Below, in pieces: positions 7,063 through 16,565 of a DNA stretch of 46,595 nucleotides; the stretch's first letter is position 1; each line of letters begins with the position of its first letter. Source of the DNA: an uncultured Alphaproteobacteria bacterium (GTDB taxonomy: Bacteria > Pseudomonadota > Alphaproteobacteria > CAAHEQ01 > UBA3637). The position numbers were made by a program, and so were the translations under genes. The stretch is taken from NCBI GenBank assembly GCA_944391585.1, contig CALXUD010000002.1, positions 1 through 46,595 on the forward strand. The letters run 5' to 3'. The notes under the pieces were generated by a model that saw nothing but the letters and a program-made list of their open reading frames with translations, was not told the origin of the DNA and ran no database searches.

Positions 7063-7812
7063 TTATTTTTCCAATAATTTTCGGATATCGGAAGCAGCTG
7101 GTGTATTCGGAAAGAGCGTTAAAAGGGGTTGTTGAGCGCGCACCGCTTCTTTCACATGTATATCGCGACGAATAATGCCCTGCAAAACGGGTTGAAAATG
7201 CAAAAAGTGGGTGCAGGTTTTTTGTAGTGTTTCAAAAGTGCGTAAGCCTTCTTTTTCCGAATCTGCGGAATTGACAATAACGCGTATGTCCGTTTGAGGA
7301 CTTGTTTCCAATTGACGTTTTATAAAAGCATAAGCGTCACTGAGAGAGGCGGGGTCATCCGTACAAATAACATAAACTAAAGAGGCTGTTTCAGCCAGTA
7401 ATTGAATTGATTTTTCAAGACCGGATCCCAAGTCCACAATCACGGCATCGTAGTGTGTTGCCAGTAGCATTAAATCATCATGAATTTGTTGGAGTTTTTC
7501 AACAGGTAGGTTGATTAAACTTTGATGTCCGGAACGGCCGGTAATCAAATCTAAACCGGTTTGAAAATCATGAGTGATGATTTGATTCATTGCTTTTTGA
7601 CCGCTGATGAGTTCTGATAAATCGTGTTCGGGAGAGAGTCCTAGTTGGATATCTATATTTGCCAGGCCGAAATCGCCGTCAAAGAGTAAGACTTTTTCCC
7701 CTTGTTCGGCTAATGCATGGGCATAAGTGATGGCTAACAGTGTTTTGCCCACTCCACCTTTCCCGGAGGCAAAAGCAATGATGGGACAAGAAGAGGAAGA
7801 AAAAGAGTTCAT
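7063..7812 (-). CDS. flhG: MinD/ParA-family ATPase FlhG (flagellar number/placement regulator)
   Basis: Deviant Walker A SGKGGVGKT is present. The gene lies immediately downstream of flhF with a 4-nt overlap. Confidence 0.8.
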   Translation of the reverse strand: MNSFSSSSCPIIAFASGKGGVGKTLLAITYAHALAEQGEKVLLFDGDFGLANIDIQLGLSPEHDLSELISGQKAMNQIITHDFQTGLDLITGRSGHQSLINLPVEKLQQIHDDLMLLATHYDAVIVDLGSGLEKSIQLLAETASLVYVICTDDPASLSDAYAFIKRQLETSPQTDIRVIVNSADSEKEGLRTFETLQKTCTHFLHFQPVLQGIIRRDIHVKEAVRAQQPLLTLFPNTPAASDIRKLLEK

Positions 7813-8708
7813 ATGCGTTCTCCCAGTAAAGCGGCTAATTGTTGCGGGGTCGGAGCGCTAAAGGCTTCGGTTAGGGAAGCACTTTGACCAAAAGCGGCAA
7901 AGGGCAGGTTGTTTTGAAAGGCGGCAGCCAGCAAATTGCCAAAATAACGGCTGGTATCCATTTGAGTGGCAATCAGTCGGTTGGCCCCGATTTGGGCAAA
8001 AGCAGTGGCGATATCGGCAGATTCCATAACATCCAGACCGGCAGGCAGTGTGAGTAAAAATTCAACACCGTGTGCCGTTTTTTTGAGTTGTTTTAAAAAA
8101 GCTAAATCCGTTTCGGATAAGTAAGAAATTCCCATTGTATCTATCAGAATAAAATTATAATGTCGACGGGTCGTTTCTAATGTGTTATTAAGCGTATTTA
8201 AATCATTAAGTGGCAGGAACGGGATTTGGGCAATTTTGCAAAAAGAAATCAGTTGTTCGCGCGCACCGGCTTTCACAACGTCTGTGGTTAAAAGGCAAGG
8301 ACTTAAGTGATTAAGTTTCGCTTGCAAAGCCAGTTTGATTAAAGCCGTTGTTTTGCCGCTGCCATGGGGACCGACAAGAGCATAAATTCGGTTTGTTTTT
8401 TGGAGAGAAAGAGGCGCAAAATCAAAAGTAGATTGCAAAAACGATTCTAACGTATCAGCGTTTGTTTGAGCCAATAAACGGTCAATTAAATCAGTCGGCA
8501 GATGATGCCTTTTCAAAAGTTCTTTTAAATCGGTATTTTGGTGAGGTATTAAAGGAACATCCAATTCCGTTTCAATGGCGGTAATCAATTTCACTGAGCC
8601 GTCAGGGAGACGATGAGAAGAAATAATCAAAACATTTTCGCCCAATTCTGTTCGGATTTTATCCATAACAGTTGGTATATTAGGACCAAAGAATGTTTTG
8701 AGTTTCAT
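7809..8708 (-). CDS. flhF: flagellar biosynthesis GTPase FlhF (short form, 299 aa)
   Basis: SRP-type GTPase motifs LVGPHGSGKTT and LIDTMG are present. The N-terminus MKLKTFFGPNIPTVMDKIRTELGENVLII is FlhF-like. The gene sits between fliN and flhG. Confidence 0.8.
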   Translation of the reverse strand: MKLKTFFGPNIPTVMDKIRTELGENVLIISSHRLPDGSVKLITAIETELDVPLIPHQNTDLKELLKRHHLPTDLIDRLLAQTNADTLESFLQSTFDFAPLSLQKTNRIYALVGPHGSGKTTALIKLALQAKLNHLSPCLLTTDVVKAGAREQLISFCKIAQIPFLPLNDLNTLNNTLETTRRHYNFILIDTMGISYLSETDLAFLKQLKKTAHGVEFLLTLPAGLDVMESADIATAFAQIGANRLIATQMDTSRYFGNLLAAAFQNNLPFAAFGQSASLTEAFSAPTPQQLAALLGERI

Positions 8709-8711
8709 GGA

Positions 8712-9014
8712 TTATAAAACCTCAGTCATAATAACGCCGAAGTGATCGTCTGCCAAAGTGAGTTCGCCATGCCCAATCAGGCGGTTATTGGCATAGATGT
8801 CCACCGGATCGCCCACTTTTTTATTAAGCGATAAGGTGGTTCCTTTTTTAAGATTCAATAAGTCTTGAATGGGTAAAGTGGTTTCTCCCAAGCCTACGAC
8901 GATTTGAACCGGCACTTGAGCCAAAGCATCCAAATCAGTTGCTGGTTCGGATTGTGTTTGTTGGAGTGTTTTTTGTGTGATGCGTTGTAATTCCAAGCGT
9001 TGTTGTGCATTCAT
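8712..9014 (-). CDS. fliN: flagellar motor switch protein FliN (SpoA domain)
   Basis: 100 aa. The C-terminal segment VPVQIVVGLGETTLPIQDLLNLKKGTTLSL...PVDIYANNRLIGHGELT is typical of FliN/SctQ-C. Confidence 0.85.
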   Translation of the reverse strand: MNAQQRLELQRITQKTLQQTQSEPATDLDALAQVPVQIVVGLGETTLPIQDLLNLKKGTTLSLNKKVGDPVDIYANNRLIGHGELTLADDHFGVIMTEVL

Positions 9015-9018
9015 GGTG

Positions 9019-10917
9019 TTAATCCTTTAAGGTAATTTTATGTGTCGCTTTTAATTCTTGCGCCAATTTTAACAAATCCAATTGGGCTGTGTCAATTTGA
9101 TTGATACGTACGACACCCAGTTGCGCAATTTCTTTAGTTAAATCTGCCCAAATACGTGGCGACATATTGCGTGAAAATGCATCTTTAATGTTATCTGAAG
9201 CCCCTTTTAAAGCCAAAGCGACTGTTTCTTTCGGGGCGGCTTTTAACAAGGTTTGAATAGATGCATCATCCCAATTGGCGAGGTGTTCAAAACTGAAGAT
9301 ATGTTCCGAAATCTGTTGGGCTGTTTGAGGGGCAGATTGATAGAGTGTTTCCAAAAAACGATCTTCCGTCTCTTTATCCATTAAGCTGAGAATACCGGAC
9401 AACTTTTCCGAGCCGGTTTGAGGAGTATGTTGGCTATAAGATGTACGCAAGCGTTTTTCAAGTGTTTCTTCAATCATTTTTAGTGTATCTGAATCTGTTG
9501 GACCAGTGTGTGATAGATGTTCAATAACACTATCCCGTTTTGTTTTAGGCAATAAAGAGAGGATATCGCCTGCTTGCTTGTTTGATAAGTGGTAAAGAAT
9601 AACCGCCAGAATATGTGGAGATTCCGATTCCAACAAAGGCAATAATTGAGGTGCTGAAAGATGTTCCAACTTTTCCCAGATTGTTTTCCCCGCGACCGGA
9701 AAATCTATTTCTTTAAGCAAGCGGTCGGCTTTGTCTGTCGGTAATGTTTTTTGCAAAACGGAACGTGTGTTTTCTTGTGTGTTGATCAGGTCGGGGGTTT
9801 TAGTGGATTCTTTTAAAAACTGTTCGGCAATTTGGTTAACGGTTTGAGCGGGGATATGCCCCAATGTTCCCATGGTGCGAGAAATTTCAATCATTTCGGA
9901 ATCGGTTAAACGTAGGAAAACAGATTGGATAATTTCTTCTCCCAAGGCTAGCAATAAAACAGAAACGCGATATAACCCCGTGTTGCCATGTGTATCTGCC
10001 GGCTGAGTCAACCAGTTGCGCAGGCGTTGAATTGCCGGTTCCGGTGTCGTTAAAAACAGGTGATAGGTTTTATCTAACGGGGTTTTATTTTCTCGGTGGA
10101 CAAAGCGGGTGGTTGGGGTAATCGCTGAAAGAGGGGCGGGGGTCATGAGTTGTTTCATCATCGGGCGGATAAAATAAAACAAAATCAAAAGGGATAAAAG
10201 GGTTAAAATCCCTAAAAAGATGGCAGAAAAAATAATTGATGCCGGCCAATTTTTCCAAAATGGGGCGCTTTCACTGAAAGGCAGGTTAATGACTTCCAAT
10301 GTATCGCCACGTTCTTTATCAAAGCCGGTGATAGATTGGATTAAATTAGTGTACACTTGCATTTCGGTGGATGAACGGGGATGGTAAATGGCGGTTTTAA
10401 GGGATGTTGATTGCATAGTGCCGTCTATTAAAACGGTGATGGAGAGTTTTTTGATTTGTTCAAAACTGTTATGGCGCGTAATTTTTTGGGTGGAAAAATC
10501 GTATTGTGTTGTTTGTGTGTAAAGGTCATTACCTTTATTGTCCGTTCCATTTTCGGAAATAGTGGCAAGTTTTATCACAGACGTTTCCGGTATCAGTAAA
10601 GATTGATCATTTGTTTCTTGCAATAGATTAAAATCGGCACGGACGGTCGCTTGAACCGTGTTAGGTCCGGTGATTTTTTCAAGTGCTGTTTTTATATTTT
10701 GTTCCAAATGTGTTTCATATTGGCGACGCAAAGAAGAAACCGTTGTAAAGGTGTTTTCAGCTCTTGTTTCGGTAAAAACGGAAGATGAATGTGTTTTTGT
10801 GGGTTGATTAAAAATAAATTGTTGGGTACAAAGAGCAATTATACCAACGATTCCCAGCAGAAGCAGGGAGAGAAGAATAACGCCGATAAGTCGCATAAGT
10901 TCCGCGGTTTTTGACAC
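9019..10917 (-). CDS. fused flagellar MS-ring protein FliF (truncated) and rotor protein FliG, single 632-aa ORF
   Basis: Residues 1-300 are FliF-like: TM1, then TVQATVRADFNL, KKLSITVLIDG and GFDKERGDTLEVINLPF (FliF C-terminal periplasmic motifs), then TM2. Residues from about 312 to 632 are colinear with full-length FliG: RVSVLLLALGEEIIQSVFLRLTDSEMIEISRTM, then ILAVILYHLSNKQAGDILSLLP, then ALKGASDNIKDAFSRNMSPR. The start is GTG at 10917, with an AAGGGTGA RBS. Confidence 0.8.
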   Translation of the reverse strand: MSKTAELMRLIGVILLSLLLLGIVGIIALCTQQFIFNQPTKTHSSSVFTETRAENTFTTVSSLRRQYETHLEQNIKTALEKITGPNTVQATVRADFNLLQETNDQSLLIPETSVIKLATISENGTDNKGNDLYTQTTQYDFSTQKITRHNSFEQIKKLSITVLIDGTMQSTSLKTAIYHPRSSTEMQVYTNLIQSITGFDKERGDTLEVINLPFSESAPFWKNWPASIIFSAIFLGILTLLSLLILFYFIRPMMKQLMTPAPLSAITPTTRFVHRENKTPLDKTYHLFLTTPEPAIQRLRNWLTQPADTHGNTGLYRVSVLLLALGEEIIQSVFLRLTDSEMIEISRTMGTLGHIPAQTVNQIAEQFLKESTKTPDLINTQENTRSVLQKTLPTDKADRLLKEIDFPVAGKTIWEKLEHLSAPQLLPLLESESPHILAVILYHLSNKQAGDILSLLPKTKRDSVIEHLSHTGPTDSDTLKMIEETLEKRLRTSYSQHTPQTGSEKLSGILSLMDKETEDRFLETLYQSAPQTAQQISEHIFSFEHLANWDDASIQTLLKAAPKETVALALKGASDNIKDAFSRNMSPRIWADLTKEIAQLGVVRINQIDTAQLDLLKLAQELKATHKITLKD

Positions 10918-11004: not shown

Positions 11005-11292
11005 TTATTCTGTTTTCAGAAGTACTTGATGATGCAGGTGAGCTGTTTCAGGATTGAAGATCAGTAAGCGGATTTTATTGGTATCAGTTTGGGTCAAAAG
11101 GCAGGCAAAAGCACCGCAACCGGAAAAGTGTATAATTTTTTCACTTGGTTCAAGGTAAAAGGTTGTGTTGGGATTTTGCAGCTTGTGTTTTGAATGATTT
11201 TCTGTTATTTTAAAAACAATAAGTGCCAAGCCGGCAACAATCAATCCGGTCATGATGAAAACACTGGTTTTGGCAATCAAAAGCATTTTCAT
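11005..11292 (-). CDS. small membrane-anchored hypothetical protein
   Basis: 95 aa with a single N-terminal TM segment (VFIMTGLIVAGLALIVF). It lies upstream of and co-directional with the fliF-fliG fusion. No family was recognised. Confidence 0.4.
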   Translation of the reverse strand: MKMLLIAKTSVFIMTGLIVAGLALIVFKITENHSKHKLQNPNTTFYLEPSEKIIHFSGCGAFACLLTQTDTNKIRLLIFNPETAHLHHQVLLKTE

Positions 11293-13796: not shown

Positions 13797-16565
13797 TTAT
13801 TTTAACATCAATTCCAAATTTTGGTGAGTGAGAGCCGCTGTCGGAATATCCAAGAGCAAGGCGTGTCGTTTTTCGGCATTCGGTTCTAAACGCCCAAGTG
13901 CATAGATAGCGGCTTCTAAAATCATCGGGTCTGTTTTTTTCAACGCTGTTTTAACGGCGGGTAAACCATGTGCATCACCCAGTCGGCGTAAGCAATAGAG
14001 AGCGTTGGCTTGAATCCAAGGTGGCATGATAAAAGCAGGTTGTGTAATCAATGCTCCAATGGATTGTGTAATTTGCGGAATGGAATGGTATTGCACCTCT
14101 GCCGATTTTACCGGATGGGTTGGATATAAAATCAGGGGTTTGATTTTTTGATATAACCGATGAGGAAGAAAATCCTGAATGACTCCTAAAGCTGTTGGGT
14201 AAAGAGCATAATCCGCTCCTTTCAGAATTTGAACGGACTGATAAAACAAAGGATGTGGTTTTAACAAAAGCAATTGATATAAAATGAGCAGGCGCGTGTC
14301 CGCAATATCTTCTTCAATCCCTTGACGCAGGTATTTAAAGGCCTCTTCGGTTTCGTGAGTGGGCGGAGTTCCGAATAGTTCCAAAAAGCGAATCCAAAAT
14401 TGAATGCGAGAGATATCTTTCTTTATACTTTTTTTCAACACTTTTTTTCGCGCGCTTTGAACCCATATAATACCGTTATTGAATAGAGTTGTTAAAATAG
14501 TTTTGCGCAATTTTTGATTAGGGATATTTAAGGAGCGTAGCAGTAATTGTTTCCCTTCTCCACTGTTTAAAGCGCCTAAAAATAAAATCAAAGTGTGTAG
14601 TCGCTGTGCCGGAATATCAGTTTGATTCAGCATTTTTTCCAACATCGGAAAAGCTCCTTTGCCATAATTTTTCAAAGCAGTCAAGGCAGCTTCCTTTAAT
14701 TCAAATTGATCTAATGCCCGAAAAATAAAAGACAGCGTTTGCGGATGGCGGACAAGGCCTGCCGTCAGTAAGGTTTGGTTTAAAACATCTGTGTCGGATG
14801 ATTGGGATAAATGTGTTAGAAGGCGCGCATAGCCTGGATTGGGAGCTGCAGACATAATGAAAAGAGCCAACAATTGATCATTTTTCTTTTTGGAAAAAAC
14901 AAGTTTTTGAAGACCGTCCATTGCCAAAAGCGTATAAGTACCTCCAAGTTTTAAAAAGCCGATTAAGGCACCGGGTTTTAAATTTTTGTCATCCAAGTAA
15001 GCGGTTAATTTTTCCAATTGTTTATGATTTTGTGTATTGCCAGCCCATTGAATCAAAACGCGTAAAGCGGTTTGACGGACTTGTTTATCCGGATCTTTTT
15101 GAAGAGTGTTTTCTAAACTTTTTTGCCATTGAGAAGCATTTTCCAATCGCTCCATACGCAGTAAAACAAAGCGTCGGATTTGAGGATTTGGGTGTTTGAG
15201 CGATTTTAAGAGATATTTTTTATATTGCGGATGTCGTGATTCTTGCAAAACGCGTAGGAAGTAAATGACATCATCGGTGTTATTACTTTTTAATTGCTCC
15301 AAAACATAAGGTAATAATTTGCTGGTGGAAATCATCAACGGACTACCGCGCCAGAAACGGGTTTTGAATGAACGTAGCAAAATCGTGGAATAAATTTGAT
15401 TTGTTTTTAAAATCAACAGAGCGAAGAAAAAGCTGAATAATCCAAGATAAGCTGCGATTAAAAATGGGCTTTCAAAAAAGAAGAAAAAGATTGCGCTGAG
15501 CATAAATCCGGCTGGTTCAATGATAAGAAGGCGTAGTTTTTTAAGGCGGATTTTATGTGCCAATGCGATGGGACGCGGCAAAATTTTAAAATAAGCATCA
15601 ATATAGAAATAGGCTGTCAGATGGAATAGGGTATATCCCAAAAATAAGGCTGGAAGATTTATGATAAATAAACTGACGGCAGAACCAACGGCGGCGCTGA
15701 TTAAAAGGGTGAGACCTAATGTGGTTGTATACAAATAATGGCTTTGACGCAATAATATGACGGTTATCAATCCGATACCGCCAAAGGCAAGCCAAAAAAG
15801 AGATAAGTAAGAAGAATAATCGGTTGTTTGAAGAGATAAAAGAGTGTAAAAGCCAATATCCATAGCGCTTTTAAGAACCATAAAAACAAAAGCGGTAAGG
15901 CAGATAAAACGAATCAGCTTTTTGCCAAGGGCTCCTTGAGCTCCGCCTTGTTTTTTTACAAAAGTTTCATTAGCGATGGGATTTAAATAGTTTAAAAGCA
16001 ATAGGCTTAATGTGGACAAAATCAGAAATGCAAGAGCATAGACCAGCAAAATATCTGTCTGGAAATGGGCTAAGCCGATGAAGCCGCCGGTTGTAAAGCC
16101 CAGCAGTTCGCATAAGAAAATTGCCGAAAATTTGAGAGAGTCAAATCGCAAAGGAATAAAGCGGACAGCCATAGACCAAAAGGCGGTTGTGAACAAAACA
16201 TAAAGCGTATATTTTATCGGAAACAGAGTGTTCAAAACTCCTTCGGCATGCGTAGAAAAAAGCATCATTCCCAATCCGATTATCAAAATTAAAAAAGACA
16301 ATATCGGTAAGCTGCCATAACTTTGTCGGCGGTCAAACAAGATAGCATAATAGCCTCCGATTGCTAACAAAAACGCAGCGCAGATTAAGTTAAAGGCAAG
16401 CGATAATGTGCCGACTTTTTCCAGTAAAAGAGTGGTAATACCGATATCATATAACGACAAACCGATTGATTTAACAAAACAAGTAAAGCCCAGCAACAAT
16501 AAAATTGTGAGACTGGAGAGCGGTAAAGAAAGTGTTTTTTCAATCAGATTACGTAAAGAGGTCAT
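13797..16565 (-). CDS. polytopic membrane protein (MFS/TLC nucleotide-transporter-like N-terminal half) fused to a C-terminal HEAT-repeat domain
   Basis: 922 aa. The first ~400 aa contain roughly 10-12 hydrophobic segments. The C-terminal half has HEAT/PBS-lyase-type repeats (HPNPQIRRFVLLRMERL, DPDKQVRQTALRVL, TDPMILEAAIYALGRL). The start overlaps the ftsY stop as ATGA. Confidence 0.55.
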   Translation of the reverse strand: MTSLRNLIEKTLSLPLSSLTILLLLGFTCFVKSIGLSLYDIGITTLLLEKVGTLSLAFNLICAAFLLAIGGYYAILFDRRQSYGSLPILSFLILIIGLGMMLFSTHAEGVLNTLFPIKYTLYVLFTTAFWSMAVRFIPLRFDSLKFSAIFLCELLGFTTGGFIGLAHFQTDILLVYALAFLILSTLSLLLLNYLNPIANETFVKKQGGAQGALGKKLIRFICLTAFVFMVLKSAMDIGFYTLLSLQTTDYSSYLSLFWLAFGGIGLITVILLRQSHYLYTTTLGLTLLISAAVGSAVSLFIINLPALFLGYTLFHLTAYFYIDAYFKILPRPIALAHKIRLKKLRLLIIEPAGFMLSAIFFFFFESPFLIAAYLGLFSFFFALLILKTNQIYSTILLRSFKTRFWRGSPLMISTSKLLPYVLEQLKSNNTDDVIYFLRVLQESRHPQYKKYLLKSLKHPNPQIRRFVLLRMERLENASQWQKSLENTLQKDPDKQVRQTALRVLIQWAGNTQNHKQLEKLTAYLDDKNLKPGALIGFLKLGGTYTLLAMDGLQKLVFSKKKNDQLLALFIMSAAPNPGYARLLTHLSQSSDTDVLNQTLLTAGLVRHPQTLSFIFRALDQFELKEAALTALKNYGKGAFPMLEKMLNQTDIPAQRLHTLILFLGALNSGEGKQLLLRSLNIPNQKLRKTILTTLFNNGIIWVQSARKKVLKKSIKKDISRIQFWIRFLELFGTPPTHETEEAFKYLRQGIEEDIADTRLLILYQLLLLKPHPLFYQSVQILKGADYALYPTALGVIQDFLPHRLYQKIKPLILYPTHPVKSAEVQYHSIPQITQSIGALITQPAFIMPPWIQANALYCLRRLGDAHGLPAVKTALKKTDPMILEAAIYALGRLEPNAEKRHALLLDIPTAALTHQNLELMLK

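Follow-up and report, generated by a model that had tools for sequence, protein, structure and literature searches.

A FliF-FliG fusion reduced to the RBM3 ring domain and encoded with FliN, FlhF and FlhG in uncultured Alphaproteobacteria: a possible exapted flagellar initiation module

Introduction

What is a flagellar rotor protein for, when its gene stands among housekeeping genes? This question is raised by contig CALXUD010000002.1 (assembly GCA_944391585.1) of an uncultured Alphaproteobacteria bacterium, of which we analysed a stretch of 46,595 nucleotides (hereafter, the window). On its minus strand a single open reading frame (ORF) of 632 residues joins a shortened FliF to FliG and is followed by genes for FliN-, FlhF- and FlhG-like proteins; we refer to these four genes as the cassette. 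A preliminary description of the sequence had recognised this natural single-chain fusion and proposed that it may mark a reduced structure whose use is not swimming. It overlooked the FliN/FlhF/FlhG operon context, the size of the family, the derived character of FliG and the published fusion of the Chlamydiaceae.

With a confidence that is about even, we favour the reading that the cassette is a reduced form of the alphaproteobacterial operon fliF-fliG-fliH-fliN-flbD-flhA-flhF-flhG, in which the first step of polar assembly was kept and put to a use other than motility. Here we describe the protein, its family and its neighbours, and weigh this reading against the other explanations.

Results

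The fusion keeps the RBM3 end of FliF and the three domains of FliG

We preferred the GTG at the 5' end of the ORF as the start codon because it is preceded, at a distance of 5 nt, by a Shine-Dalgarno-like GGGTGA and because the resulting MSKTAE N-terminus is nearly invariant in the orthologues (K3, T4, A5, E6); automatic gene callers start from an ATG seven codons downstream and report a 625-aa protein. The peptides quoted in the preliminary description (KKLSITVLIDG, GFDKERGDTLEVINLPF, LYRVSVLLLALGEEII and ALKGASDNIKDAFSRNMSPR) are each found in this ORF. An internal start yielding a free FliG was ruled out; there is no Met between residues 256 and 342.

Pfam identified YscJ_FliF_C (PF08345) at residues 124-214 (6.6e-18, 66 bits against a cutoff of 23.8) and, from the PF14842/PF14841/PF01706 set, FliG_N at 313-405, FliG_M at 424-494 and FliG_C at 524-630, each of the four exceeding its gathering score. 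The N-terminal part is thus related to FliF, as the preliminary description had it, while the RBM1/RBM2 family PF01514 found no Pfam match anywhere in the protein. The NCBIfam profile for FliF (TIGR00206) matched only over its positions 338-440 of 555 (40.4 bits against a cutoff of 129.75), and the FliG equivalog TIGR00207 scored 188.2, below its cutoff of 226.7. Scores under the NCBIfam equivalog cutoffs were in fact obtained for the FliF, FliG, FliN and FlhF of the cassette. NF004606 ('type III secretion system protein'), presumably a Chlamydia family, gave a negligible match (16.7 bits against a cutoff of 297).

To place these domains we used an AlphaFold model built with 16 orthologues (mean pLDDT 75.6; segments in Table 1). 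Two transmembrane (TM) segments, seen as helices in the model and in the hydropathy of family members, flank a periplasmic region of ~188 aa, in line with the ~190 residues estimated in the preliminary description. In a Foldseek comparison against the PDB, the periplasmic domain aligned from end to end with the RBM3/collar chains solved for the FliF of Salmonella and Vibrio (8ftf, 7d84, 6sd1 and 8z4d; E values of 2e-9 to 6e-8, 155-163 columns, target TM-scores of 0.56-0.60). SpoIIIAG (5wc3) was a weaker match (6e-4), and the NCBIfam profile spore_III_AG also matched weakly (3e-5). Congruently, phmmer aligned residues ~60-305 with canonical FliF from residue ~230 to the C-terminus, for example with residues 246-566 of the 566-aa FliF of locus L005. 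Because both methods place only RBM3 and what follows it, we conclude that RBM1 and RBM2 have been deleted and that the RBM3/collar domain, TM2 and the FliG-binding C-terminus of FliF have been retained; the missing half is the N-terminal ring-building part that the preliminary description had suspected. In canonical FliF the inner ring, in which the export gate sits, is made up of RBM1 and RBM2. After a junction of 11 residues comes FliG, which aligned with Salmonella FliG (8umd_B) at 1.5e-33 over residues 8-320.

A large and conserved family carries the same fusion

Is the gene real, or is it a trace of decay or of faulty assembly? The identical protein is present on 15 contigs of independent assemblies (ENA ERZ28614030, ERZ28613881 and ERZ24773298; Logan ERR4096267), which disposes of an assembly or frameshift error at the junction, and a survey of related genomes returned the same fusion in a large conserved family. 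The 16 clusters that we obtained at 90% identity (35-100% identity; 598-664 aa) contain the same four Pfam domains throughout. Their sequences, among them orthologues with 35-78% identity, align end to end with ~70 invariant columns, and the majority residue accounts for a fraction of 0.55-0.70 per column in the folded domains and of 0.24-0.38 in the linkers. When 1.8 billion representatives clustered at 50% identity were searched exhaustively with a hidden Markov model (HMM), this added ~35 proteins of 440-663 aa that match both halves. The three family members with an NCBI source name are all called 'hypothetical protein [Alphaproteobacteria bacterium]', so that recognising the family corrects their annotation.

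GTDB loci were retrieved with an alignment-based family profile; a scan with a single protein as the query returned no loci. The GTDB representatives that carry the fusion (L001-L004) are Alphaproteobacteria metagenome-assembled genomes (MAGs) from the gut of sheep, roe deer and buffalo, together with a MAG named 'SGB_4816'. The profile also returned 76 canonical loci (L005-L080), against which the 12 fusion loci were compared. These 76 match residues ~60-632 and were rejected as fusions, since without exception fliF (512-632 aa) and fliG are ORFs of their own there. Of the 74 loci with both genes, 33 have fliF and fliG in one reading frame, with a single stop codon between them and no other stop of that frame in the spacer; a full-length fusion would therefore arise from one stop-loss mutation or from read-through. 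In a canonical flagellar locus of a long-read MAG (L031, 9971-10966), the FliF ORF has only 332 aa and matches from RBM3 onward, which could be a sequencing-error frameshift or another short FliF.

That a sequencing error could in this way mimic a fusion is one argument for regarding the gene as an artefact joining two genes, and the loss of genes around the cassette, together with the stepwise disappearance of FliN and of the ring domain from some lineages, would suit the remains of a lost flagellum that decay without a function. Nevertheless, the deletion of RBM1 and RBM2 is common to all members, for which an error cannot account. The independent recovery of the ORF, its integrity in dozens of clusters down to 35% identity, a conservation that tracks the domain boundaries, and a tightly packed operon with overlapping genes leave decay or artefact very improbable, and we consider it largely refuted. 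The pattern, in which domains are conserved, linkers are not and many diverged clusters are intact, argues that the fusion gene is real and under selection.

Two members of the wider family go further in reduction. The TM segments are only 10 residues apart in P0058 (440 aa) and only 20 in P0061 (451 aa), which leaves no ring domain in either. The P0058 locus is orthologous to that of the window, in the order rluD, TM-TM-FliG, FlhF, FlhG and SecA. Because they lack the periplasmic domain, proteins of this type cannot form an MS ring around a rod, and we regard the P0058 locus as the strongest single indication that the conserved function is that of a membrane-anchored FliG with FlhF and FlhG.

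The searches returned other arrangements as well. Locus L092, on a 5.9-kb contig, encodes in order dksA, an RBM3-only FliF-FliG fusion (P0030), a 120-aa ORF, FliN and a degenerate FlhG-like protein, without FlhF; the torque helix of P0030 is canonical (R...DD), and the locus may represent an intermediate stage or an independent reduction. In other lineages, proteins of 787-920 aa (P0060, P0071, P0078, P0083, P0085, P0087, P0135 and P0141) look like full-length FliF (RBM1-3) joined to canonical FliG, and may be genuine fusions or products of gene calling or read-through. P0084 (996 aa) has a FliM/FliY-like N-terminus (TQDEIDELL), long repeats and then two FliG_C-like segments, and may be a FliM-FliG chimera.

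The cassette is colinear with the canonical operon minus three genes

The cassette is flanked by rluD, divergent and upstream, and by secA, downstream. The rest of the window is housekeeping, as are the 10 kb beyond its right end, and there are no rRNA or tRNA genes in the window. The order is fusion, FliN, FlhF, FlhG, and the genes are tightly packed and overlapping: the FliN-like gene begins 4 nt past the stop of the fusion, flhF begins 3 nt after the FliN-like gene, and flhG overlaps the flhF stop by 4 nt. The same cassette was found in every orthologous locus examined.

To compare the loci we clustered their ORFs, reaching ~10 kb around fliF-fliG or the fusion, and named the recurrent families with Pfam. 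FlhF was present in 12 of the 12 fusion loci, FlhG in 11 (the twelfth contig ends inside flhF) and FliN in 9; FlhF and FlhG also occur in L093. FliN is missing from L090, L091 and L093, and is hence dispensable in some lineages. The 76 canonical loci contained FliH-like (61), a sigma-54 activator (59), FlgD (54), FlhA (47), FlgE (37), FlgL (27), FlgK (25) and FliI (25). None of these was found in any of the 12 fusion loci, including the 46.6-kb window with its additional 10 kb, and over the same reach no gene for the export gate (FlhA/FlhB/FliPQR), the ATPase complex, the rod, the hook, the filament or the stator was present. FlhF is encoded in 29 of the canonical loci, and there the genes follow one another as fliF-fliG-fliH-fliN-activator-flhA-flhF-flhG. 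The cassette is colinear with this operon, minus exactly fliH, the sigma-54 activator and flhA; the removed genes are its export-related and flagellum-specific regulatory part.

This comparison bears on a first rival explanation, by which the fusion is the working rotor of a derived flagellum: the other flagellar genes would lie elsewhere in the genome, the RBM3-only FliF-FliG would form the MS ring and the upper C ring, and the stator would have co-evolved with it. The FliG N, M and C domains, the FliF C-terminal helices, RBM3/collar, FliN, FlhF and FlhG are all intact and conserved, as such a rotor would have them. Engineered full-length FliF-FliG fusions form rings (PDB 8z4d) and, according to earlier work, support motility in Salmonella. 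However, the fusion has no RBM1 or RBM2 to hold an export gate, three genes are gone from an otherwise colinear operon, 12 genomes have no further flagellar genes near the cassette, and relatives at the same locus do without any periplasmic domain.

A second rival would make the ring a scaffold or gate of another envelope machine such as a secretion system, by comparison with the Chlamydia fusion, for which a role with the injectisome has been proposed, or with the SpoIIIAG ring of the sporulation channel. The RBM3 fold is common to SpoIIIAG, the Chlamydiaceae fusion occurs in a non-flagellated organism in which flagellar proteins interact with type III secretion system parts, and just upstream of our fusion lies the gene of a small, conserved periplasmic protein. 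The window also encodes a VirD4-type coupling protein (28949-31171). In contrast, secretion genes are linked to the cassette in none of the loci examined, the VirD4 gene is 18 kb distant and its synteny is not kept in relatives, and family members without a periplasmic domain cannot make a periplasmic channel. We therefore hold a role in another machine to be quite improbable.

The coupling protein, of the VirD4/TraG type, is part of a region on the minus strand (27902-32239) in which it is flanked by three ORFs without family matches; a link between this gene and the cassette was rejected because synteny is lacking in relatives. Between ftsY and a gene for a cNMP-binding protein, the window further encodes (13797-16565, minus strand) a 922-aa protein with HEAT-repeat matches only, which is found at the same place in L081, L082 and L084 and is split into two ORFs in L083, suggesting an assembly frameshift there. 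In a single lineage (L089, P0015; 6532-13820) the cassette follows immediately after ybgC-tolQ-tolR-tolA?-tolB and shares their orientation; with this one context, we treated a link to Tol-Pal as a coincidence.

The torque helix of FliG is altered and conserved

The preliminary description had called the FliG complete. Its N, M and C domains are all there; its stator-facing residues are derived, as is, in the subclade of the window, the EHPQ motif. We mapped positions through an alignment with Salmonella FliG (Salmonella/E. coli numbering) and compared them with 75 canonical FliG proteins, all of which have R281 (75/75) and acidic residues at 288 (75/75) and 289 (75/75) in the torque helix. 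In the fusion family, D288 is replaced by K in 20/20 proteins, D289 by E in 19/20 and R281 by A in 13/20. The window fusion has R, K and E at positions 281, 288 and 289, R281 being kept in its subclade. In the wider family, 31 of 36 representatives have W in place of A283, and few of the canonical charges are left. Since this helix is altered and yet among the best-conserved stretches of the family, its sequence suggests conservation for a partner other than the canonical stator.

The FliM-binding EHPQR motif of FliG_M reads ESPH in the window subclade and EYPQ in the gut clade, as in most canonical Alphaproteobacteria; the column of R160 holds R in 14/20. K264 is invariant and position 297 is basic in the 20 closest members of the family, which agrees with the working rotor considered above, and the strongly conserved change of the torque helix (W590, K595, E596) could equally reflect co-evolution with a divergent stator. 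On the other hand, the pair of acidic residues that canonical FliG proteins have without exception (75/75) has been lost, and EHPQ is degenerate in the window subclade. With the evidence from the operon, these changes make a derived flagellum unlikely, though it is the main rival.

Properties of FlhF, FlhG and the upstream protein

The best PDB match of the FlhF NG domain was FlhF itself (8r9r, 5.9e-15), and a profile of the N-terminus of the family's FlhF matched the crystal structure of the FliG-interacting domain (FID; 9en1) over its full length (3.5e-8). In the FlhF of the window, a short protein, the P-loop, DTMG and TQMD motifs are present. The FlhG of the cassette groups in the ORF clustering with the FlhG of canonical flagellar loci.

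A 95-aa protein with a conserved CxxxxC motif and no Pfam or NCBIfam match (Table 1) is encoded between rluD and the fusion gene. Homologues occupy the same position in L081, L088, L090 and L091, and L093 has a 98-aa gene there. The protein is a possible fifth member of the module.

Table 1. Coordinates of the cassette genes in the window and of the segments of the fusion protein.
Feature	Window position	Strand	Residues or length	Basis and remarks
FliF'-FliG fusion gene	9019..10917	minus	632 aa	GTG start; single uninterrupted ORF with Pfam and NCBIfam domains
Conserved cytoplasmic N-terminus (MSKTAE...) and TM1	10807..10917	minus	aa 1-37	
Periplasmic RBM3 and beta-collar domain	10273..10743	minus	aa 59-215	PF08345, Foldseek, phmmer
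TM2, hydrophobic SIIFSAIFLGILTLLSLLILFYFI	10144..10242	minus	aa 226-258	
FliF C-terminal FliG-binding helices (predicted)	10009..10080	minus	aa 280-303	Invariant F288, W302
Complete FliG	9028..9981	minus		Pfam, alignments; derived torque helix (R588, W590, K595, E596), ESPH for EHPQ
TM1 helix			aa 2-37	AlphaFold model
Disordered stretch			aa 38-58	AlphaFold model
Alpha helix			aa 59-83	AlphaFold model
Very long beta-hairpin			aa 88-164	AlphaFold model
Alpha helix			aa 183-197	AlphaFold model
Beta strand			aa 206-211	AlphaFold model
TM2 helix			aa 226-258	AlphaFold model
Disordered linker			aa 259-279	AlphaFold model
Two helices (280-290, 292-303)			aa 280-303	AlphaFold model
FliG fold			aa 314-624	AlphaFold model
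FliN-like protein	8712..9014	minus	100 aa	Conserved N-terminal peptide and SpoA; PF01052 1.5e-21; TIGR02480 83.5 bits against 84.05
FlhF-like SRP-type GTPase	7809..8708	minus	299 aa	FID and NG domain; TIGR03499 1.2e-33, 117.3 against a cutoff of 174.15
FlhG/MinD-type ATPase	7063..7812	minus	249 aa	CbiA/MinD families; KGGVGKT deviant Walker A
Small membrane protein	11005..11292	minus	95 aa	N-terminal TM, CxxxxC; between rluD and the fusion gene

Discussion

A reduced initiation module

As we read it, the genes that the cassette has kept are those that act together at the start of polar flagellar assembly. The FID of FlhF binds the middle and C-terminal domains of FliG (FliG-MC), FlhF-bound FliG binds the C-terminus of FliF (FliF-C) and not FliM/FliN, and FlhG modulates the hand-over (Dornes et al., PMC11236974). 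In Vibrio, FliF's N-terminal 108 residues, TM1 among them, pull down FlhF (Fukushima et al., 10.1101/2023.01.12.523874), and the region corresponding to this N-terminus and TM1 is conserved in the fusion. Under the reading we favour, FlhF would bind the FliG-MC of the fusion through its N-terminal FID, and probably the N-terminus and TM1 too, and would insert or localise the protein at a defined site, probably a pole. There the RBM3/collar domains would oligomerise into an S-ring-like periplasmic ring and, because FliG is covalently attached, a FliG ring would form beneath at a ratio of 1:1. FliN, where present, and the MinD-type ATPase FlhG would dock on or regulate this platform. Its output would be spatial information, as a polar landmark, through FlhG-dependent control of division or in another polar process, and not rotation or type III export. 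[quoted passage not shown]

The non-swimming use proposed in the preliminary description fits the loss from the operon, the flagella-free neighbourhoods, the charges of the torque helix and the relatives without a ring domain, and it falls short of proof. Several points weigh against it. Other parts of the genome may hold the genes for rod, hook, export and stator, since in Alphaproteobacteria flagellar genes are often scattered. In real flagella RBM3 and the collar surround the rod; they are well conserved in the lineage of the window, and an output of positional information leaves their role unexplained. No FliM was seen at the fusion loci, though FliN normally needs FliM. The argument for a putative division or landmark role is one of analogy.

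The nucleotide-binding partners add to these points. The FlhF G3 motif DxxG has become DxxA/S in four members (L086, L089, L090 and L091). The FlhG of the window has an N-terminus of ~10 residues with no recognisable FlhF-activating DQAxxLR motif, and it ends right after the last core helix, with no C-terminal amphipathic membrane helix. With a degenerate G3 in the FlhF of several members and a window FlhG without activator motif and membrane helix, the canonical FlhF/FlhG cycle may not operate. In the gut clade, moreover, the signature lysine of the deviant Walker A of FlhG is G or R, and a comparison of L003, L004, L086, L089, L090 and L091 hints at altered nucleotide cycles in the FlhF and FlhG of the relatives of this cassette.

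A broader proposal, which we put forward more tentatively and with slightly less than even confidence, is that of a widespread organelle-like module in uncultured Alphaproteobacteria: a rotor-only ring of RBM3-only FliF covalently fused to re-surfaced FliG, positioned by FlhF/FlhG, that has outlived the flagellum as a polar landmark or as a regulator of division or polarity.

The reuse and disassembly of molecular machines are far less documented than their building. In the cassette, the module with which the assembly of a polar flagellum begins (the S-ring domain, FliG, sometimes FliN, and FlhF/FlhG) appears to have survived the loss of the export and axial parts as a compact and strongly conserved operon. 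Should it indeed have outlived the flagellum, it would clearly exemplify how a flagellar sub-complex can be exapted into a machine of its own. An obligately 1:1 fusion would then be a natural experiment on the stoichiometry of the MS and C rings, its RBM3-only ring would be a minimal object for structural work, and the cassette would be a natural test of the roles of FlhF and FlhG outside the making of flagella. It would also be a second, independent natural FliF-FliG fusion besides that of Chlamydia.

Comparison with known systems

Among the closest known systems is the canonical operon of Hyphomonadaceae, Inquilinaceae, Acetobacter, Roseospirillum and others. The kept genes have the same order and orientation, the FliG proteins are 25-34% identical, and the FliN, FlhF and FlhG of the cassette cluster with the proteins of this operon. 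The canonical operon differs in having FliF (512-632 aa) and FliG as separate proteins, in having fliH, the sigma-54 activator and flhA, and in its many flagellar neighbours.

The module of FlhF, FliG and FliF with FlhG that is recruited to the pole in Shewanella and Vibrio comprises the same set of proteins, and FID, FliG-MC and FliF-C are all present in the cassette (PMC11236974; 10.1101/2023.01.12.523874). With that module the building of a complete flagellum begins, and FliM/FliN take over from it, whereas in the cassette FliM was not seen, the B-domain linker of FlhF is nearly gone and FlhG has no recognisable activator motif. The C. jejuni FlhG and MS-ring/switch proteins provide, by analogy, an example of a spatial function apart from motility (PMC3228812), although that organism, unlike the bearer of the cassette as we read it, has complete and functional flagella.

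The SpoIIIAG ring (5wc3) resembles the fusion in that RBM1 and RBM2 are missing and an RBM3-type ring-building domain, with a beta insertion in it, comes after the N-terminal TM segment. SpoIIIAG, a sporulation protein of Firmicutes, lacks both a second TM segment and a cytoplasmic FliG; the likeness is one of fold only.

Engineered FliF-FliG fusions of Salmonella and Vibrio form MS rings (PMC10941966; PMC6079021), and like the protein described here they join the C-terminus of FliF to the N-terminus of FliG at 1:1 (PDB 8z4d/8z4g). Unlike it, they contain full-length FliF (RBM1-3; 945 aa in 8z4d) and canonical FliG, and are laboratory constructs in complete flagellar systems.

A natural fusion of FliF and FliG is as such not unprecedented, since one has been published from the Chlamydiaceae (Bergeron, 10.1101/023564 / PMC4768692): a protein of ~330 aa with RBM2, a second RBM-like domain and a FliG_M-like domain only, in a non-flagellated host. 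Searches of the literature for a natural FliF-FliG fusion in endosymbionts, Holosporales or Rickettsiales, or for CT719 with FliG, returned nothing relevant, that paper being the sole precedent found, and we found no paper on an RBM3-only FliF-FliG family. The two proteins have in common a natural single chain, a shortened periplasmic region between two TM segments and a suspected role other than motility, and the Chlamydiaceae fusion likewise occurs in a lineage with few flagellar genes. Whereas that fusion combines RBM2 with an RBM-like domain and has no SpoIIIAG-like RBM3, the protein described here has RBM3/collar and neither RBM1 nor RBM2; it keeps the FliF-C helices and the N, M and C domains of FliG, and its gene is in an operon with those of FliN, FlhF and FlhG. 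What is new with respect to both the Chlamydiaceae and the engineered fusions is thus the combination of an RBM3-only FliF, the FliF-C peptide and a complete FliG with a re-surfaced torque helix, in one operon with FliN, FlhF and FlhG.

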